A stretch of DNA of 64,000 bases, taken from Candidatus Auribacterota bacterium. Lineage in GTDB: Bacteria > Auribacterota > Tritonobacteria > UBA1439. A model generated the notes under the pieces. It ran no database searches. It was not told the DNA's origin and was given only the letters and a program-made list of their open reading frames with translations. The position numbers and the translations under genes are program-made. The stretch lies in contig JAPLCX010000059.1 in assembly GCA_026392035.1 (NCBI GenBank), positions 82 to 64,081 on the forward strand. The letters run 5' to 3'. Positions 2,946 to 52,581 of the stretch are shown in pieces. How positions within the stretch are numbered: the stretch's first letter is position 1; the number at the start of each line of letters is the position of its first letter.

Positions 2946-5246
2946 CTAGGGTTGTAAATTTAGAGTCGAGAACATCGATGCTATGTCTTCGTCTTTAGTC
3001 ACTTCATCCTGACGGGATTCACTTGAAGAGAAATCGACATCGTCGTCACTTCTGGAGCTGTCTTGCTCTCGTTCATCAGCATGCTCTCTTATTGCAGCTA
3101 TATCTGCCTCGATATCGAGTTTGACAACCTTTGAAAGCGACTCCAGAGCTTCCGCCTCTTCGCGCAAGGCATCCGCATCAAGATCAGCATAGTCGGACGC
3201 GACGCTTTCAGCGACCTCCTGAATAGTGGCGGCCACTCGATCCATCTTTTCATCCGGGAAAAGTCCCGGGCGTGACTGCACGAGTCTGCACAAGGGCCGA
3301 AGGTCATCCGCCCACCGTGAGCCAACAAGCAACCCGTCGATAGCCTTTTCCATGAACGGCTCCGTCCATCTGCGGAAATCATCATCGGTAAGTGTTGTCA
3401 AGACATCGACAAGATCGGCTAGGCCGTCTCTATCGAATTCTTTTTTGGCGATGCGTGACTCAATTAGCGGAAAAGTCTCGCGTACAAATGAAAGAAGAGG
3501 TTTATGAGCATCCGCAGCGATCTCAGCAAATAGCGCGAGTCGTGACTCAATGGCATGCGGCCAGCGTTCTCTACTATCAACATTCCCTCTTCGCATGTTG
3601 ATCACGCGACACGGTTCTCCCGAAAGCAAACGGCGGAACATTTGCTCGGCCGTCTTTGAGTTGGCCTGGATAAGACCATACAGAAGCGGGCGCCGGTCAC
3701 GCCATGCCCAGAGGGAATCAAGTTGCTCGTAAAACACAACTGACAGAAACAACAAAGTGAACTCCGCATCGCTTGCCAAGAGATACTTTTTTACAAAATC
3801 AGCCACGGAGGGATTCTGAAAGCGAACCAGTATCTCCGCGCCCTCCTGATTATAAGAAAGAAAGTCACCCTCTAGCTCCTTGAGAGCGCTACGATAGTCC
3901 TGCGGCCCGATGGTTGCGGCATACTTTTTTGCATAGGCCAAGTTGTATGACTGATAAGCCTTCTCGGCGTCGCGTATGAAACACTGATGAGGCATGCTGG
4001 CCAGTACTAGCAGCAGGTTTCGGGCAGCCTGCGATAGCTGGTTGCTAAAAGCGTGTTCCCATAGGGCCAAAGGGTTTTCCATGCTGTTCATGAAGAACTC
4101 TATGTATCGAGCCGGCGGGACATCTCGGAGACGCGCGAACTCTGTCAAGAGTTGCACAATGCGGGGGCTATAGTTTCTGTGGTCAATGATCCGCAAATAG
4201 TTTTTGTCGGCCAGAATAGAGGCGCGATACTGAGTGGGCAAGGCGGAGAAGTAAATGTGGTTGAATAAGATGCGCGCCCGATTCATCCGCGTATACTTCG
4301 CAAGATCCACAATGCATTTCTGCGCGGTAAAGCCTTCTCGATTTAGTTTTTCATATTGCTGATATGCCTGCCGAAGGACGTATTCACGCGTTGTCAGAAT
4401 AAGCTTAATGCCGGTGGTCTTACGAATAGCATGAATAAAGTCGATGATACGTTGGTCTTCATTCTTGCGGAGCTTCTCCGAGAAGGATGTTTGTCCAAGA
4501 AAGTCGTCGTAGTAGAATACACGCCTTGTCTCGGGCGCCTTGAACTCCCACGCTTCAGCGATGTCTTCGCTGACCTTAATGACTTCGAAACCCGCGCGGC
4601 TATAGTGGAGAATAAGCATCTCCGCAAGGATGGTCTTTCCGATTCCAGGGATTCCGGCAATGATGCAGAAGTTGTCATGCTCGAGAATGTGGGCGGCTTC
4701 ATCAAAGCTCTCATTCTGAACATATAGCTTCGCATGCTCGCGAATTCTGTCCAACTCATGATTTGAGAAGTTCCTGACGGCCGCGTGGAGTACTTCTTCA
4801 AGCAGAGGAAGGCTAAATAACCACAGCTTGATTGTCTTACGTTCGACCTGCTCGAACTTACCGAGCAGATTGTTTAGATCGTCCTTGCCATAGACGTCAT
4901 CGGCGCATTTGATGAAAGGGTGAAGTGCCCGAACGATTTCGTCCTTCTTGGCCGGGTTCAATGGCACGGACGTAGCCACAATGTAACGCTCGGGCTTGAT
5001 CCGAGCCAGTTTAGGTAGTTCGTTGGTCGCTAGAACATGCAGAAGTGCATCGTAGCCCGATTCAACGTAGTGCTTACACTGGACGATCAGGTTGTTCTTG
5101 GCGTTGCGGGAATGACGGAAGTCTATGCCGCCGTCTCTGCCAGTGGTGAAAGACTGAAGTGTAAGGCCGAGTTCCTCCTGCAGTAGATCTCGAACGACTA
5201 CCTCAAAGTCAACTGGTGATAAGGTTCTGAAATCGTAGTTTGGCAT
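2946..5246 (-). CDS. Mrr-like PD-(D/E)xK nuclease domain fused to a STAND (NB-ARC/AP-ATPase-like) P-loop NTPase with a helical C-terminal region; candidate antiviral STAND (Avs-like) protein
   Basis: The true start is the ATG at 5246 (MPNYDFRTL...). The ORF-track N-terminus (MGFSGADARTLRAFAPPRVPPW...) is read-through into the upstream repeat. The N-terminal domain matches the Mrr catalytic fold: FEVVVRDLL...TGRDGGIDFR...IVQCKHY. Walker A is GIPGIGKT and Walker B is VFYYDDFLGQT. A sensor-1-like motif LILTTRE follows. About 450 aa of helical sequence lies downstream. The protein is 767 aa. Confidence 0.75.
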   Translation of the reverse strand: MPNYDFRTLSPVDFEVVVRDLLQEELGLTLQSFTTGRDGGIDFRHSRNAKNNLIVQCKHYVESGYDALLHVLATNELPKLARIKPERYIVATSVPLNPAKKDEIVRALHPFIKCADDVYGKDDLNNLLGKFEQVERKTIKLWLFSLPLLEEVLHAAVRNFSNHELDRIREHAKLYVQNESFDEAAHILEHDNFCIIAGIPGIGKTILAEMLILHYSRAGFEVIKVSEDIAEAWEFKAPETRRVFYYDDFLGQTSFSEKLRKNEDQRIIDFIHAIRKTTGIKLILTTREYVLRQAYQQYEKLNREGFTAQKCIVDLAKYTRMNRARILFNHIYFSALPTQYRASILADKNYLRIIDHRNYSPRIVQLLTEFARLRDVPPARYIEFFMNSMENPLALWEHAFSNQLSQAARNLLLVLASMPHQCFIRDAEKAYQSYNLAYAKKYAATIGPQDYRSALKELEGDFLSYNQEGAEILVRFQNPSVADFVKKYLLASDAEFTLLFLSVVFYEQLDSLWAWRDRRPLLYGLIQANSKTAEQMFRRLLSGEPCRVINMRRGNVDSRERWPHAIESRLALFAEIAADAHKPLLSFVRETFPLIESRIAKKEFDRDGLADLVDVLTTLTDDDFRRWTEPFMEKAIDGLLVGSRWADDLRPLCRLVQSRPGLFPDEKMDRVAATIQEVAESVASDYADLDADALREEAEALESLSKVVKLDIEADIAAIREHADEREQDSSRSDDDVDFSSSESRQDEVTKDEDIASMFSTLNLQP

Positions 5247-5262
5247 CTCTTTTCCCGTGGCC

Positions 5263-5396
5263 AACAACGGAATTGAGCGGCGATCCCGCCAAGGCGGGAC
5301 GCGGGGAGGAGCGAACGCCCGAAGCGTTCGCGCATCCGCGCCGGAAAAGCCCAATTGTCAAGGATAAAGATTTGACCCCCAAACCTCCCGTATGTC
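5263..5396. repeat. structured intergenic repeat, copy 3
   Basis: AACAACGGAATTGAGCGGCGATCCCGCCAAGGCGGGACGCGGGGAGGAGCGAACGCCCGAAGCGTTCGCGCATCCGCGCCGG, followed by the AAGCCCAATTGTCAAGGATAAAGATTTGACCCCCAAACCT module. The hairpin GCGAACGC-CCGAA-GCGTTCGC carries compensatory changes relative to copy 2. Confidence 0.65.
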
Positions 5397-5469
5397 CCGA
5401 TCCAGGTGATGAACTCTATATGATTGTCGCAAAATCGGCTTTTCTCATCTTTTACGCCCAACGTTGCTT

Positions 5470-6474
5470 TCACCGGCGGCGCGCTAGCGGCGTCCGGTGG
5501 AAGGCATGGTTGGGACGTTTTTCCATCGTCTTCCGAATCTGATACTTCACCTCAGGCTCATGCACGGCAGGGAACTCATCCATCCACGACAAATCCTTCC
5601 CAATAACCAATTCCTCCATTGTCGCATGATGCGTATTTCTCATGGGAATAAGACGCATTTGAAACCCATGTCTTCGGGCCATTGTCTTGACTTCTTCCGC
5701 GTTATCGTAGGTTATCAAGAAATCACCCCTCAACGACTCGCACACCGTAAACAATCGCTCATGGTCGATCTCGCAGTGGGTGTACAACCGCCTCCCAGCT
5801 TTCTTTCCACCAGCCGTATATGGAGGATCTATGAAATAGACTGCATGGCGGTTCGCTGCAAACTCCTGAATGACTTTTAACCCGTCATCACATCGGAAAT
5901 CAATTCTCGTTGCAACGTGGTTGAGGTCCGAGAGCCTCCTGGCGAGCGTCGCCGGGTACCAGCGAGAACGGATACCTTTCCCGTTCTCTCCGTACTTAAT
6001 GAATCCGGAACCATTGGCAAGAATTCCTCCATGGAGCGTTCGATTCTTAAGAATCGTCTGAAACGCTTTCTCTCGTCTTGTCTTCGGAGTTCTCGATAGT
6101 TCCTGTACAACGGATTCCTTGTTCAGGTCGAACGCAAGGATATGATTGGCCAGCCAGCCCGCGTCGCCATTGACCACCGTTTCCCATACTGCTGCGATTT
6201 CGTCGTCCAATTCGACCATCACTGCTTTCTGCACAAGATTCTCAAAGACAGCCGTAAGGCTGATAATTCCACCGCCAGCGAACGGCTCGACTAATATGCC
6301 AGGCTTCGAATACATGCGCGCGATCCAGTGCCGAAACGTTGGCACAAACCATGTCTTGCCGCCGGGGTAGCGGAAGGGGCTTCGTTGCGGGACCGATGCT
6401 ACATTGACCGGCCTCAGTGCTTCTATTTCTTCACGGAGCTCAGGGAATAAGAGGGATTGCTTGGGGATAGCCAT
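5470..6474 (-). CDS. DNA adenine (N6) methyltransferase, Dam / D12-class
   Basis: It carries FRYPGGK (motif I region) and the catalytic FIDPPY (DPPY). The protein is 334 aa. It ends 2 bp before the start of the endonuclease ORF. The C-terminal approximately 20 aa may be read-through toward the repeat. Confidence 0.8.
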   Translation of the reverse strand: MAIPKQSLLFPELREEIEALRPVNVASVPQRSPFRYPGGKTWFVPTFRHWIARMYSKPGILVEPFAGGGIISLTAVFENLVQKAVMVELDDEIAAVWETVVNGDAGWLANHILAFDLNKESVVQELSRTPKTRREKAFQTILKNRTLHGGILANGSGFIKYGENGKGIRSRWYPATLARRLSDLNHVATRIDFRCDDGLKVIQEFAANRHAVYFIDPPYTAGGKKAGRRLYTHCEIDHERLFTVCESLRGDFLITYDNAEEVKTMARRHGFQMRLIPMRNTHHATMEELVIGKDLSWMDEFPAVHEPEVKYQIRKTMEKRPNHAFHRTPLARRR

Positions 6475-6475
6475 G

Positions 6476-7384
6476 TCAGAATGGCCTCTCGATAGTCTTG
6501 TTTACGGGTGGAGTTTCGATCTGTTCATCCAGCTTTTCCTGAAGCAGTTTCACGAAGTCGTTGATCTTCCCTGGCGCGGGAGTTGTGATAGACATCAAGG
6601 CTGGCTCGAATTGGGTGAACACTTCATCGATCTTGGTTAGCTTGAGCCTCTCTTGTCCGCCTTCCTTGGTAATCTTGAGGTCGTAGATCAGCCAGGCAAT
6701 TTCGGCTTTTGATTTGCTCACCTTTGCCAACGGGGGGAGTGTCTCAAAAAAGCTCTTGTTCAAGGCGACAGCGGTCTTCTTCTGCCAGGAATGCAGAATC
6801 CCGCCCTTGAAGAGAAGTTGTGGTGCCAGGCGTTTACGGGAAGATGAAAGATAGTCCGGGCGCGGATAGTTCGGTTGGGTTGACCAATCCATTTGTGCGT
6901 GCGTCTTCGGGTTCTTCATATAGTACTCAAAGGGATCGCGCACGTTGCCGGATATGTAAACAGCCTGAACCTCGAGGGCGCCGAAGTCGAAGACCTTACC
7001 ATTCTCGTCGTAAGCGACGAGGACAACGTCAATGTTACCGGCTGACTTTCCATGCACATCGTTAAGTCTCACTTCTGTCAAGGAACTCCACCGGGTGCCA
7101 TCGTCAAAGAAAAAGGATGCGGCATCGTCAGCGATGAGCCAGTCTTCGCGGAACCGTATCGGGCATGTTATCACGGTACTTCTCTCGTGCAAGACACTAC
7201 ACACGCCGAGAGGATTCTTGGCCTTGTCTTTCGTGCAGTTTGGCACTTTGTTGTTGAAGGGACACAGACGCCGAGACCGGTATCTGTCTGCCTTGGCCGA
7301 GTGATCGGTCAAGAGATGGCCAAAGACCTCTGCAAGTGGTTGTACGGGTTCTTTCATAGTTTCTCTCAATTCACTGCTTTCCAT
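6476..7384 (-). CDS. type II restriction endonuclease, NotI-family fold (PD-(D/E)xK with an N-terminal Cys4 metal-binding region)
   Basis: The region AEVFGHLL...CPFNNKVPNC...GVCSV...CPIRF...GALEVQAVYISGN...LLFKGGILHSWQKK is similar to NotI (AEFFGH...CPF...GVCVV...CP.R...GVLEIQTMDFHGS...FKRTFYQMAYKF). This comparison is from memory. The start is uncertain: ATG at 7384 (MESSEL) or 7357 (MKEPVQ). The ORF-track N-terminus is repeat read-through. Confidence 0.6.
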   Translation of the reverse strand: MESSELRETMKEPVQPLAEVFGHLLTDHSAKADRYRSRRLCPFNNKVPNCTKDKAKNPLGVCSVLHERSTVITCPIRFREDWLIADDAASFFFDDGTRWSSLTEVRLNDVHGKSAGNIDVVLVAYDENGKVFDFGALEVQAVYISGNVRDPFEYYMKNPKTHAQMDWSTQPNYPRPDYLSSSRKRLAPQLLFKGGILHSWQKKTAVALNKSFFETLPPLAKVSKSKAEIAWLIYDLKITKEGGQERLKLTKIDEVFTQFEPALMSITTPAPGKINDFVKLLQEKLDEQIETPPVNKTIERPF

Positions 7385-7457
7385 AGGAGGATCATACTGA
7401 ATTCGTAACTCCTTTTCAACCTCAACTCCCCCTACCTTCGGGATTCTCCCTTGTCCC

Positions 7458-7577
7458 AACGATGGAATTGAGCGGCGCTCCCGCCAAGGCGGGACGCGGG
7501 GAGGAGCGAACGCGAGCGCGCGCGCATCCGCGCCGCCGGGCGCGGACAACACATGATAGCCGCTCAATTCCTTCGTT
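7458..7577. repeat. structured intergenic repeat, copy 4 (complete element with terminal inverted repeats)
   Basis: The left arm is AACGATGGAATTGAGCGGCG and the right arm is GCCGCTCAATTCCTTCGTT. That gives a 19-bp inverted repeat with one mismatch, ending AAC...GTT. The internal hairpin is GCGAACGC-GAGC-GCGCGCGC. It lies immediately 3' of brnA. Confidence 0.65.
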
Positions 7578-7583
7578 CGCTGA

Positions 7584-7784
7584 TTACTCTATCGCTTCTG
7601 CAAGACGCTTGTCTGACTTGATTAGGTCATTGACGACGGAAGATAAGTCAGAATCCTTGCGCTCTGCAATTCTCTGCACGAACGAAAGATTCTCCCGATC
7701 TAGATAGACAGGCAGATTGAACTTTGCGTTTGCCCTGTAGAACTTGCCCCGCTGACCCTTGGAAAAATCGTATTCTTTCTTCAT
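7584..7784 (-). CDS. brnA: BrnA-type antitoxin (RHH-like, DUF4415-like)
   Basis: The 66-aa protein MKKEYDFSKGQRGKFYRANAKFNLPVYLD... follows BrnT by 4 nt. Confidence 0.65.
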   Translation of the reverse strand: MKKEYDFSKGQRGKFYRANAKFNLPVYLDRENLSFVQRIAERKDSDLSSVVNDLIKSDKRLAEAIE

Positions 7785-11674: not shown

Positions 11675-11757
11675 ATATACTCCCTCCACGGCATCAGGTA
11701 ATGTCAAAAGATATTGTAAAGCAACCACAGATTTCTCTGATTATTTACGCCTTTTCC

Positions 11758-11898
11758 GAGTAAATCAGTGGTGATTCATCTGTGGTAACATCCGTATAAT
11801 TAAGCCGCTGTATAGAAATTCTTTTCTTTCTCCATTTACCACAGATTTATTCACCACAGATTGGCGCAAACTTCCTCCCCCCCCCAAAAAATCTTCAC
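11758..11898. repeat. 141-bp repeat A; a perfect inverse-orientation copy lies at 48916-49056. It contains several ACCACAGAT motifs, a TATAAT hexamer and a C9 homopolymer.
   Basis: GAGTAAATCAGTGGTGATTCATCTGTGGTAACATCCGTATAATTAAGCCGC...TTTACCACAGATTTATTCACCACAGATTGGCGCAAACTTCCTCCCCCCCCCAAAAAATCTTCAC is identical to the reverse complement of 48916-49056. An extra CAACCACAGATT motif lies at 11723. Confidence 0.8.
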
Positions 11899-11977
11899 CA
11901 TCACGCAAGACTCACCCATCGAGGGCCAATAGCCCAAAGATCTCGCGCAAAGAGAGCGACCCGGCGTCAGATGTTTC

Positions 11978-13398: not shown

Positions 13399-13921
13399 AT
13401 GATTTCTTCAGTCCTTTCTCCGCAGCGGCGGAACTACCCTGACCGTGTGGCACCAATGCAAACGGTTATGTTTCACTCCGCCTACGCACACCATCGCTTT
13501 AAAAAGGCCGCTCAAGACACATTAGACATACCAGGTTATTGAACATTTTACAGAGATCTCAATGCCCCGGCAATATTATTTGTTATTATCAAAGGGGTTA
13601 TGTCATAATTGAAATCACACCTCCTACTACAGAATTTCTCGGGCACACACACCGCGAGACGACAATAAGTTAAACACATATCAAGAGTGTAGGGGAGTAA
13701 GAAGCCTACTGGGCACGTTGGAATAATCAAACAGAGGAAAAGGTCGTAGACGTTATATGTCGTCCTATCTCTAAGAAAAGATTGCAGACAAATTCATTCC
13801 CCAGGGATGAATTAAGATTCAACCCGTTCGCATTGCGGCGGTTAGATAAAACGTCTACAACTTACTGGAGCATCTATGGAAAATTCTAATTAAAACTGTT
13901 AAAATTATAGGTGAAAATGTT

Positions 13922-14223
13922 ATGAACGCTCAAATGCGTATTGATCGGAAAAAATCGCCGAATTCTGCAAGCATCACCACATTCGCAAGTTATCATTATT
14001 CGGCTCAGTGTTGGAGCAAGGCTTCAGACCGGACAGCGATGTGGACATGCTCGTGGAATTTGATGCGGGGGTAACCGTTGGCCTTATAAACCTTGCAGGG
14101 ATGGAAATTGAGCTGTCGAAGATTCTCGGTCGGAAGGTTGACTTAAGAACCCCCGCAGAATTAAGCCGATACTTCAGGCAGGAGGTTTTGCGGTCGGCGG
14201 AGGTGCAATATGCGCAAGGATGA
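13922..14223 (+). pseudogene. nucleotidyltransferase (MNT-type antitoxin of a HEPN/MNT module), disrupted by a 1-nt frameshift in an A6 run
   Basis: ATG at 13922 gives [11 protein letters not shown]. After the run cggAAAAAAtcg the reading frame shifts, and the +1 frame continues [36 protein letters not shown] (the GSxxRG...DxD nucleotidyltransferase core). One extra A would restore a single ORF. The ORF track sees only the GTG-initiated C-terminal part, 14008-14223. Confidence 0.55.
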
Positions 14224-48841: not shown

Positions 48842-48915
48842 CAATCGCAGGTGCGCAGGTAGTGTCAAAAGTTCTATGAAAGAGCTGAATGCAACCACAG
48901 ATTGCACAGATAGTT

Positions 48916-49056
48916 GTGAAGATTTTTTGGGGGGGGGAGGAAGTTTGCGCCAATCTGTGGTGAATAAATCTGTGGTAAATGGAGAAAGAAAAGAATTTCT
49001 ATACAGCGGCTTAATTATACGGATGTTACCACAGATGAATCACCACTGATTTACTC
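48916..49056. repeat. 141-bp repeat B, the perfect reverse-complement copy of 11758-11898 (includes a G9 tract)
   Basis: Exact identity to the reverse complement of repeat A. It ends 19 bp before the prs start codon. An extra CAACCACAGATTGCACAGATAG lies at 48893. Confidence 0.8.
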
Positions 49057-49074
49057 CACAAAGGAGGGGTGACA

Positions 49075-50013
49075 ATGAAAATATTTTGCGGTCGTTCCAA
49101 TCCGGAACTCAGCCGCGAGATCTGCAACTATCTCGGCGTGGAGATGGGGAAATGCATTGTACACAAGTTCAAGAATGACAACACATTCGTGCGCATCGAG
49201 GAGAATGTCCGCGGGAAGGATGTTTTCGTCGTCCAGACCAGCGCCATCCCGGTGAATGACTACCTCGTGGAATTGTTGATAATGATCGACACCCTCAAAC
49301 ACGCCTCCGCGAGCCGCGTGACGGCAGTGATCCCCTACTATCCATATGCCCGCTCCGACAAGAAGGATCAACCACGCATTTCTATAACCGCCAGGCTCGT
49401 CGCCGATCTGCTGGAGACTGCAGGCGCCGACCGCGTGCTCACCATGAATCTGCACTCCGAACAAATTCAGGGGTTCTTCAGGGTCCCTGTCGATCAGCTG
49501 CTCGCATCGCCCATCCTGTGCGAATATTTCTCAAAAATCGGACTCGAAAACTTCATCGTCGTAGCGCCCGACGCGGGCAGCGCAAAACGCGCGGAGAAAT
49601 ATGCACTCGCGCTCGGCCTCCGGATGGCGGTACTCGACAAGCGCCGCGATCCGCTCAACGACACGGTGGAAATCTTCCACATCATCGGGGATGTGGAGGG
49701 TAAAAACGCGATCGTGTTTGATGATGAGATTGCGACGGGGGGGTCGATGATAGAAACGGCTCATGCCCTCATAGAACACGGGGCAAAAGAGATCTATGCG
49801 GGCGCCGCGCACGCCGTCCTCTGCGGCGATGCTCCCCAGAGGCTCCAGAAATCACCGTACAAACAAATCGTGGTGACCAACTCCCTCCCCGTGGAGAGAG
49901 AAAAGAAAATTGCGAAGATAAAAGTCCTCTCGGTCGCAGGGCTGTTTGGTGAGGCGATAAAAAGAATTCACGAAGGCAAGTCGGTGAGCGAGCTCTTCAG
50001 GAAGCACCTATAA
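49075..50013 (+). CDS. prs: ribose-phosphate pyrophosphokinase
   Basis: MKIFCGRSNPELSREI...DLHSEQIQGFF...VDRAHGAGA-like PRPP motifs. The start ATG follows AGGAGGGG. Confidence 0.9.
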   Translation: MKIFCGRSNPELSREICNYLGVEMGKCIVHKFKNDNTFVRIEENVRGKDVFVVQTSAIPVNDYLVELLIMIDTLKHASASRVTAVIPYYPYARSDKKDQPRISITARLVADLLETAGADRVLTMNLHSEQIQGFFRVPVDQLLASPILCEYFSKIGLENFIVVAPDAGSAKRAEKYALALGLRMAVLDKRRDPLNDTVEIFHIIGDVEGKNAIVFDDEIATGGSMIETAHALIEHGAKEIYAGAAHAVLCGDAPQRLQKSPYKQIVVTNSLPVEREKKIAKIKVLSVAGLFGEAIKRIHEGKSVSELFRKHL

Positions 50014-51813: not shown

Positions 51814-51837
51814 TTGTAAATACTATGTTCATCTGTG

Positions 51838-51866
51838 TTTATCTGTGGTTATACGTTAGTTTCCAC
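51838..51866. repeat. partial ACCACAGAT-type motif cluster (third, degenerate occurrence) upstream of rpe
   Basis: CATCTGTGTTTATCTGTGGTTATACG resembles TTCATCTGTGGTAACATCCGTATAAT from repeat A/B. Confidence 0.3.
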
Positions 51867-51897
51867 ATTTAGTTCTATTTAGCTATAGAGGTGTCCG

Positions 51898-52581
51898 GTG
51901 CGAACTGCTCCGGGAATCAAAATTGCCCCCTCGCTGCTGGCGGCCGATTTCGGCAGGCTGGGAGATGAGGCGCAGGCCGCTGAATCGTCAGGCGCCGATA
52001 TGCTGCATCTCGACGTGATGGACGGCCACTTCGTGCCCAACATCACCATCGGACCGGGAACAGTAGCGGCGATCCGGAAGCGGGTCAGGATTCCCCTGGA
52101 TGTCCACCTTATGATCAGCGAGCCTGATAAATATATTGATGCGTTCGTCGAGGCAGGGGCCGATATCCTCACCGTGCACGCCGAGGTCCTCCCTCGCCTC
52201 CACCACACGCTCCAGGTGATTCGCTCCAGAGGCATCAAAGCGGGCGTTTCCATAAATCCGGCGACTCCGTTGAGGGATATCGAGGCCGTGCTCGACGAGG
52301 CCGACCTCGTGTTGCTCATGACCGTCAACCCGGGATTCGGCGGCCAGAAATTCATTCGCTCCGTTCTGCCGAAAATAGCGGACTTGCGGAAGATCGCCGA
52401 CACAAGGGGATACGCATTTGACATTGAGGTGGACGGCGGAATAACACTGCATTCCGCGCGGGAGGCGGCGGAGGCGGGCGCCACTATTATCGTGGCAGGC
52501 ACCGCGATCTTCGGCGCGAGCGATATCGCTCACGCCATTAAGGTGCTACGAGAAGCCGCTCAGTTCGTTGCAGGTGAATGA
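51898..52581 (+). CDS. rpe: ribulose-phosphate 3-epimerase
   Basis: IAPSLLAADF...HLDVMDGHFVPN...DVHLM. Confidence 0.9.
   Translation: MRTAPGIKIAPSLLAADFGRLGDEAQAAESSGADMLHLDVMDGHFVPNITIGPGTVAAIRKRVRIPLDVHLMISEPDKYIDAFVEAGADILTVHAEVLPRLHHTLQVIRSRGIKAGVSINPATPLRDIEAVLDEADLVLLMTVNPGFGGQKFIRSVLPKIADLRKIADTRGYAFDIEVDGGITLHSAREAAEAGATIIVAGTAIFGASDIAHAIKVLREAAQFVAGE

Follow-up and report, generated by a model that had tools for sequence, protein, structure and literature searches.

The window analysed here is a 64-kb stretch (64,000 nt) of contig JAPLCX010000059.1, part of a metagenome-assembled genome (MAG) of Candidatus Aureabacteria/Auribacterota, PVC group. It contains two inverted copies, A and B, of a short intergenic repeat. 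Copy A precedes the gene for a DUF2721 membrane protein (Pfam PF11026; 11234..11683, minus strand) and copy B precedes prs, encoding ribose-phosphate pyrophosphokinase (49075..50013, plus strand). The neighbours of the copies are DUF2721, DUF6941, manC and prs, and both copies have the same orientation relative to the gene that they precede. An earlier description based on the letters of the window (the sequence-only reading) reported a perfect 141-bp inverted duplicate with clustered motifs and listed a mobile or selfish element, gene conversion, and a regulatory or small RNA module as explanations. Here we argue, with a probability of roughly 0.88, that the 141-nt segments are the shared parts of two inverted copies of one non-autonomous mobile element of about 260 nt.

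The repeat and its motif

Positions 11758-11898 are indeed the exact reverse complement of 48916-49056; in a repeat search the match stretches to 149 nt at 98%, with three mismatches past one edge. The motif ACCACAGAT has nine exact occurrences in the window, compared to 0.44 expected, a number that was reached in none of 100 shuffles. All nine sites fall in three intergenic spots: the region of copy A (11724, 11778 on the minus strand, 11838 and 11853), that of copy B (48894, 48953 and 48968, both on the minus strand, and 49028) and a site near rpe (51841, minus strand). Since the 141-mer holds three exact motifs and one variant, ACCACTGAT (11764 in copy A, 49042 in copy B), the reported count of at least four copies was slightly generous. 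The other described features are present: extra motifs flanking the repeat (11724 and 48894), a TATAAT hexamer (11795-11800), a homopolymer of nine C (11877-11885) or nine G (48929-48937), and a degenerate third motif cluster upstream of rpe (51831-51849).

Anatomy of the element

Loci from other assemblies, genomes and metagenomes, designated by L-numbers, were compared with the window; the proteins encoded by those from other samples that were used at loci A and B are exactly those of the window. A complete element, 258 nt in length, is present at locus A in L035; it begins with GGTAGTGTCAAAAG, ends with CTTTTGACATTACC and is flanked on both sides by TGATGCCG (8/8), its target site duplication (TSD). 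Its terminal inverted repeats (TIRs) of 14 bp, GGTAGTGTCAAAAG on the left and CTTTTGACATTACC on the right, are complementary at 13 of 14 positions. From the left, the TIR is followed by the first outer arm, with the sequence GCAACCACAGATT-nCnCAGAT, then by a leader rich in G, by the first inner arm (AATCTGTGGTGAATAAATCTGTGGT) and by a 45-nt remnant of an open reading frame (ORF), after which mirror-image inner arm, outer arm and TIR complete the element. As a single strand, the full element is one long imperfect palindrome (z = -7.1 as DNA, z = -6.6 as RNA), in the predicted fold of which the two TIRs pair with each other, as do the two outer arms and the two inner arms. The ACCACAGAT motifs, which are confined to copies of the element, are simply the building units of these nested inverted arms.

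Copy A lies on the minus strand. The TSD copy at its right end (11689..11696) reads CGGCATCA on the plus strand, which is TGATGCCG in the orientation of the element, the sequence found on both sides in L035. It is followed by the right TIR (11697..11710; GGTAATGTCAAAAG on the plus strand, equal to CTTTTGACATTACC), a terminus that is also found in L001-5/7, L035 and the relatives described below, and by the outer arm of the right end module (11721..11748), which holds the motif at 11724, pairs with the left outer arm and is conserved in our alignment A3. Based on alignment to the gene-carrying relatives, the 141-nt core (11758..11898) consists of the right inner arm (11760-11788), the ORF remnant (11789-11833), the left inner arm (11834-11862) and the leader with the C9 tract. 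At its far edge five residual nucleotides of the left TSD remain (CATCA, 11899..11903) and an expected 61 nt, corresponding to CCG, left TIR and left outer arm, are missing.

Copy B lies on the plus strand. At its left end is the TSD copy GGTGCGCA (48850..48857), followed by the left TIR GGTAGTGTCAAAAG (48858..48871), a terminus that is shared with L035, L008, L023, L025 and L166, all with unrelated flanks, and by the outer arm of the left end module, GCAACCACAGATTGCACAGATAGTT (48891..48915), which holds the motif at 48894 and is conserved in all relatives. The core (48916..49056) comprises the leader with the G9 tract, the left inner arm (48952-48980), the ORF remnant (48981-49025) and the right inner arm (49026-49054), again from alignment to the gene-carrying relatives. 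Here the truncation is at the right: two residual nucleotides of the right TSD are left (CA, 49057..49058) and an expected 67 nt, consisting of right outer arm, right TIR and GGTGCG, are missing. The third spot is a degenerate solo fragment of an end module (GTAAATA..ATCTGTGTTTATCTGTGGTTAT..TTTCCACATT; 51815..51870, plus strand), about 27 nt upstream of the rpe start (GTG at 51898), which has a weak local alignment to the right end module and contains one exact and one near copy of the motif.

Evidence for mobility

Locus B is polymorphic. In L006 the site is empty: the spacer between manC and prs is only 37 nt, reads manC-stop..GCAGGTGCGCACAAAGG..ATG and contains a single GGTGCGCA. By comparison the window has about 209 extra nucleotides between GGTGCGCA and CAAAGG. 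The left junctions at this locus, in the window and L042-45, read GGTGCGCA/GGTAGTG (the slash marks the junction) and the right junctions, in L001-5 and L007, read CATTACC/GGTGCGCA CAAAGG, so that an 8-bp duplication of the single GGTGCGCA of L006 can be reconstructed. Of the options listed in the sequence-only reading, that of a mobile or selfish element is thus borne out, by TIRs, 8-bp TSDs and an empty site. [quoted passage not shown]

Two copies and one fragment were counted in the 64 kb, and the break patterns of unitigs imply at least three left ends. Many unitigs end within about 30 nt of the ends of the element, which thus behaves as an assembly repeat. L036 (ENA ERZ27313048, contig k141_934402, 2050-2307) enters the element from locus A and exits, by way of a right end of variant sequence, CTTTTTACATTACC, into a different gene (MPTFKYFAKDLQG..), with a TSD match of only 2/8. 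The contig is a recombinant or else a chimera of the assembly; its exit into another gene, a third right-flank context, proves that a third insertion site exists.

Gene-carrying relatives

Relatives were sought by scanning species-representative genomes for the tandem inner-arm motif. An Omnitrophota MAG, JBDRCZ01, yielded seven related copies, with identical termini and 8-bp duplications of their own, including L025 (435 nt, TSD 8/8), L008 (472 nt, 7/8) and L023 (187 nt, 6/8). The larger copies hold a decayed small gene that Pfam assigns to PF13366 (PDDEXK_3, 'GxxExxY'). A protein search with fragments of this decayed gene gave more than 7,900 homologues at E<=1e-10, the closest of which sit in complete elements of identical anatomy: L166 (614-617 nt, TSD CTTGTGTA, 8/8, next ATG at 23 nt), L167 (624 nt, TSD 7/8, next ATG at 23 nt) and L168/L169 (597 nt, TSD 7/8, next ATG at 19 nt, between hisD and hisB). 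The sole ORF in L166, L167 and L168 encodes a PF13366 / TIGR04256 protein of about 125 aa, of the PD-(D/E)XK 'GxxExxY' type.

Alignment A3 arranges these elements in a size series of about 620, 472/435 and 258 nt, in which both end modules persist and the loss is confined to the ORF. The counterpart of the central GGAGAAAGAAAAGAATTTCTATACAGCGGCTTAATTATA of the window in the L166/L167 ORF is its opening codons (..EKDFPYK) fused to its closing codons (EYKRVI and stop). TATAAT lies in this ORF remnant and is not conserved in the relatives, and the G9 tract has its counterpart in a G-rich leader of variable sequence that precedes the lost ORF. The 64-kb window holds no intact PF13366 gene, and screening all compared loci for TIR pairs that enclose a long ORF gave no transposase-sized element. 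Viral contigs scanned for TIR-plus-arm patterns gave no matches. The window element is a MITE-type internal-deletion derivative of a TIR-bounded element that duplicates 8 bp of its target.

Two further observations concern the gene-carrying elements. In L168 (2884-2905) and also in L169 the hisD frame runs 22 nt into the left TIR, where its stop codon is supplied, so the insertion rewrote the C-terminus of a housekeeping gene. The PF13366 ORFs (L166 at about 3085, L167 at 259, L175 and L171 at 1501) start inside or right after the inner arm, for instance ATCTGTG/GTG AAT AAA, without a clear Shine-Dalgarno motif at the usual distance, which hints at an unusual kind of translation initiation or at processing of the RNA in the foldback.

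Position of the insertions

In 11 of 11 insertions (A, B, the L036 copy, L008, L017, L023, L025, L028, L166, L167 and L168) a start codon follows the right end at a distance of 19-25 nt and the element is co-oriented with the gene. The distance is 22 nt for copy A (ATG at 11683) and, in full-length versions, 24 nt for copy B (ATG at 49075). A Shine-Dalgarno motif begins 0-6 nt past the TSD. The gap on the upstream side, to the preceding gene, ranges from -22 to +82 nt; because it varies, the position is anchored to the downstream start rather than forced by short spacers. Apart from the nearby Shine-Dalgarno motif the insertion sites share no sequence and the TSDs are mutually unrelated.

We envisage that the copies moved by a reaction, either of the cut or of the copy type, with an 8-bp stagger at the target, and that catalysis would have been provided in trans, since the window has neither a PF13366 gene nor a transposase. 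The ACCACAGAT-type 9-mers would serve as recognition and/or structural units of the ends. The element of about 260 nt itself arose by internal deletion from an element of about 620 nt with a single PF13366 ORF.

Several points weigh against mobility as the explanation. No transposase is tied to the element, and its full-length relatives encode only the PD-(D/E)XK protein. The tight spacing to start codons could mirror selection rather than targeting, for example a need for co-transcription and for a preserved host ribosome-binding site. The copies number two, plus a fragment, in the 64 kb, with at least three flank contexts in the population, and each copy in the window, lacking one end, would be immobile as assembled. 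Finally, more distant PF13366 loci have inverted 9-mer arrays with no clear TIR or TSD.

Extent of the 141-nt segments

Two edges of the perfect repeat, 11898/11899 and 49056/49057, occur in no other assembly compared. At the edge of copy A, L034-L040 read on as ...GTGATG/CCGGGTAGTGTCAAAAG... and the junction GCGTGATGGTGAAGATT is specific for the window; at copy B, L001-5 and L007 read ...TTGCTTTACAATATCTTTTGACATTACC GGTGCG/CACAAAGG and it is the junction GATTTACTCCACAAAGG that is found only in the window. Three unitigs with 100.000% identity to the window, L034 over 6502 nt, L001 over 5320 nt and L042 over 7168 nt, carry full ends exactly where the window is truncated. The 141-mer is merely what both copies retain.

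It is somewhat more likely than not that the assembler made the repeat, or at any rate the two truncations and the extent of 141 nt, and that both copies are in reality full-length. This is supported by the junctions GCGTGATG/GTGAAGATT and GATTTACTC/CACAAAGG, which are found only in the window, by the full ends that the window-identical unitigs have at the truncation points, and by the lack of microhomology at either truncation junction. Moreover, 141 nt is the default largest k-mer of MEGAHIT, equal to the length of the repeat, and L036, a 'k141_' contig, is chimeric across the element (TSD 2/8). On the other hand, the element is real at both loci in many independent assemblies, a degenerate solo fragment exists upstream of rpe, and no concrete path through a de Bruijn graph (MEGAHIT) that deletes one end per copy could be derived. 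Also, natural MITE copies that miss one end are common (PMC10969869). A single inversion or recombination between the copies was considered as well and does not yield the two truncations. The sequence-only reading had itself raised the prospect of an assembly artefact: this does not apply to the repeat as such, whereas it probably does to the exact 141-nt boundaries.

Host functions considered for the repeat

One of the remaining explanations is that the 9-mers are operators for a transcription factor that co-regulates pentose-phosphate genes (prs, rpe) and the DUF2721 gene. The strongly over-represented motif does cluster directly upstream of prs and rpe, two genes of ribose-5-phosphate metabolism, keeping one orientation and a fixed distance to the start codon. 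However, presence of the prs site is polymorphic and accompanied by a TSD, elsewhere the element precedes unrelated genes (among them ribH-like, hisB, pfk and an ABC ATPase), and the manC-prs spacer of a sister species (L180) lacks the motif. A promoter and terminator scan of the full element predicted no sigma-70 promoter and no terminator. Such a regulon is therefore very unlikely.

The C9/G9 tract had been proposed to act as a slipped-strand phase-variation switch, here for neighbouring genes. Strains do vary in its length, with T6G9 in the window and T5G8 in L035 and L036, and so do the relatives, from G4 to G6. Yet the tract is a piece of the former 5' leader of the PF13366 ORF that was deleted. 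It is separated from the host starts by more than 120 nt and falls outside predicted promoter spacers and host ORFs, and what the relatives show is a variable G-rich stretch and no conserved homopolymer. Hence the length variation stands and a plausible host target does not, which makes the switch highly improbable.

A small or structured RNA (sRNA) gene duplicated by gene conversion is very unlikely as well. The copies are perfectly identical, a strong structure is predicted (RNA z = -6.6, as above) and TATAAT is present. A search of the window for Rfam 15 families at gathering score gave no matches, though, and at E<=1 seven related loci gave sub-threshold miRNA-hairpin noise and one unrelated tRNA. 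TATAAT, which has no -35 partner, is left over from decayed coding sequence and the relatives do not conserve it, there is no terminator, and the fold is fully explained by the inverted end modules of the transposon. The regulatory or sRNA module of the sequence-only reading thus finds neither Rfam family nor promoter nor terminator.

Least probable is the suggestion that the motifs are DnaA boxes or iterons of a replication origin, for although TT(T/C)ACCACA matches TTATCCACA at 7/9 positions and a minimum of the cumulative GC skew coincides with a switch in gene strand at about 13.4-14.0 kb, some 2 kb from copy A, sites with at most one mismatch to TTATCCACA are not enriched (12 versus 8.7 expected) and lie scattered, unclustered near either switch or element, the motif is limited to mobile copies that are 37 kb apart and polymorphic between strains, and the flanking ORFs scanned include no dnaA or rep gene next to either copy. 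Plasmid-type iterons were rejected, given that the flanking ORFs scanned include no rep gene and that the units form inverted arms rather than a direct array.

Hairpins of 9-mers and the PF13366 family

The outer-arm pattern GCAACCACAGATTNCNCAGAT was found at 120 or more metagenome loci (L046-L165). Most of the matches listed are gene-less palindromes of 9-nt units, GCAACCACAGATT-ACACAGATT-TCACAGATT followed by a loop and the mirror image, that lack the GTGTCAAAA TIR. Purine-rich and pyrimidine-rich flanks often lengthen the palindrome, and many of these hairpins lie just before start codons. No Rfam family matches the gene-less hairpins.

Three PF13366 genes that were picked irrespective of the motif (L171, L175 and L176) are each bracketed by inverted 9-mer arrays, with a variant unit, CACTAATTA/CACGAATTA, in L176. 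Inverted-repeat scores of the flanks amount to 15-22.5 at six of eight distinct loci, compared to 8.1 +/- 1.4 for 2,000 controls, with a 99th percentile of 12.5. The structural model of the PF13366 protein is confident (pLDDT 90), and Foldseek retrieves weak matches, solely to generic PD-(D/E)XK nucleases. Residues G32, E35, Y38, E84 and K86 are invariant and D74 is nearly so. In a survey of the superfamily from 2012 the function of the family is given as unknown and multiple horizontal transfers are reported for it (PMC3424549). Literature searches for GxxExxY, PF13366 and PDDEXK found no link to repeats or mobility, an absence of evidence from incomplete coverage, and searches with sequence strings gave primer coincidences only.

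Further patterns were noted among these loci. L088 and L048 have an intact PF13366 gene with a 9-mer array on the 5' side only, directly followed by an ORF that carries a zinc-binding transposase domain of the IS91 type (PF14319). In L046, L057, L062 and L075, and partly in L152, the motif is followed by a stretch of about 150 nt that is conserved between several unrelated samples (..TACACAGACnTTTTTGTTTCTTCTGTTTTAGGCTCG..GGGGATAGGCCAAACC.AAACCACTACGCCAGTT.CCTACTC) and has the look of a non-coding element in its own right. Tandem arrays of 15-nt period containing AATCTGTGGT, e.g. AATCTGTGGTGAATA x7, occur in L014 and L033 (Saprospiraceae MAG) and in L015 and L021 (Planctomycetaceae MAG), and the Planctomycetaceae loci also show neighbouring hairpins of CTCTGTGnn and ATCTGCGnn units. 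These 15-nt arrays and the single matches that the tandem-motif scan gave in other phyla were treated as unrelated or unproven.

Other features of the window and of a sister species

The first 8700 nt (minus strand) form a defence-type island with genes for an nSTAND3+Mrr_cat protein (2946-5354), for a D12 methyltransferase (5470-6474) and for a NotI-like endonuclease (6476-7567). Four sites, at 2710, 5250, 7445 and 8148, share a GC-rich repeat of about 100 nt (..CCGGCGCGGATGCGCGAGCGC..GTCCCGCCTTGGCGGGATCGCCGCTCAATTCCGTCGTTGG..) with 66-77% identity. Because each of these repeats overlaps the 5' end of a long ORF, the ORFs of the island are probably over-extended. The window also contains a perfect 40-nt direct repeat (865-904 and 5347-5386). 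At 13399-14007 lies an AT-rich gap of about 600 nt (39-43% GC) that separates minus-strand from plus-strand genes and holds the minimum of the cumulative GC skew; canonical DnaA boxes do not cluster there.

In the sister species (L180; GCA_026392015.1) the element is not present at the compared locus. Another GC-rich repeat, of about 250 nt (..TTCTCTTACGTTTTGTGTnGGTT.CTTTAG.TATTCCCTC.CCCCTGTGAAGGGGGGAGGTTAGGA..), occupies two intergenic spacers (5380-5700 and 7390-7660), and rpe is absent between the M16 peptidase gene and lepA.

The candidate mobility enzyme and its implications

For this genome, the analysis removes a tempting false lead (origin, iteron or regulon) and flags two places where the assembly is probably wrong. 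Beyond it, three things are joined that were unconnected in the literature found: the GxxExxY family, hairpins of CACAGATTn 9-mers and a TIR element that inserts within operons, anchored to starts, and duplicates 8 bp.

The catalyst could be either an unseen transposase acting in trans, for instance a DDE enzyme with GGnnnTG-type ends, or the PF13366 nuclease. That the parents of about 620 nt are autonomous and that the PF13366 PD-(D/E)XK protein is itself the mobility enzyme we consider unlikely; no PD-(D/E)XK protein is known to transpose DNA alone, and it is for this reason that we keep the odds low. If it were so, the protein would recognize the inverted arrays of 9-nt units around its own gene and insertion would take place with an 8-bp stagger, anchored about 10 nt upstream of the Shine-Dalgarno motif. 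This would amount to a new transposition chemistry and a new class of minimal prokaryotic transposon, and would provide a function for a very large protein family of unknown function. If the nuclease is not the enzyme, the targeting anchored to start codons still needs explaining and may affect operon expression in PVC-group bacteria.

Comparison with known systems

As a kind of element, a MITE, the window element is ordinary. Its family, with a lone PD-(D/E)XK gene, foldback arms of 9-mers and start-anchored insertion, is unusual and, as far as we found, undescribed. Prokaryotic MITEs such as Correia/CREE, ERIC, Chunjie and QMITE1/2 are likewise shorter than 500 bp, non-coding and intergenic, have short TIRs and direct repeats, and are multicopy, as the element probably is, with a stable stem-loop and with full and truncated copies side by side (PMC10969869). 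The element differs from MITEs in general by an interior that consists of two mirror-image modules of nested 9-nt-unit arms, by full-length relatives that carry a PD-(D/E)XK gene and no recognised transposase, and by its constant position 19-25 nt upstream of a co-oriented start.

Members of IS6/IS26, for which consensus ends, 8-bp TSDs and two catalogued MITEs have been described (PMC6807381, PMC7986276), resemble the element, as do these MITEs, MITEBth2 and MITEHarch3, in 14-bp TIRs with G1, G2 and G7 and in an 8-bp TSD. The right end in the MAG, GGTTCTGTCAAAAA, matches the IS6/IS26 consensus GGTTCTGTTGCAAA at 11 of 14 positions (9-11 of 14 for the ends overall) and the element deviates at positions 9-11 (CAA instead of TGC); IS6 elements, moreover, do not have the subterminal hairpin arrays that are found here. 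The full-length L166, L167 and L168 encode only PF13366 and no DDE (IS240-type) transposase, and GGnnnTG is shared with IS1 (PMC6807381). Membership of IS6/IS26 is therefore unsupported.

Free-standing homing endonuclease genes offer a further parallel, as a lone small nuclease gene wedged in operons (hisD-x-hisB, fba-x-pfk, neuB-x). Homing, however, leaves neither TIRs nor target duplications, both of which the elements described here have. Mobile insertion cassettes (MICs), which are IS ends around passenger genes, likewise have transposon ends around a gene other than a transposase and are mobilised in trans, whereas no cognate IS with the ends of the present element was found. Nor would a casual passenger be expected, since PF13366 accompanies the arms across distant lineages, including L176 with its variant 9-mer.

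Another parallel is found in REP/BIME sequences and their RAYTs (REPtrons), which also have a small nuclease-type gene between inverted repeats and repeats that occur as gene-less hairpins. RAYTs are HUH/Y1 enzymes, REPs have a GTAG-type head and their insertion leaves no TSD; here, in contrast, a gene of the PD-(D/E)XK type goes with units of nine nucleotides (CACAGATTn), and TIRs and 8-bp TSDs are found in one lineage. A REP/RAYT system proper was rejected, given that the flanked gene is PF13366 / TIGR04256 with conserved D74, E84 and K86 and no Y1/HUH. Should the PF13366 protein nevertheless be the mobility enzyme, then the 260-nt element and the gene-less hairpins would be its non-autonomous derivatives, in the way that REPs are to RAYTs.

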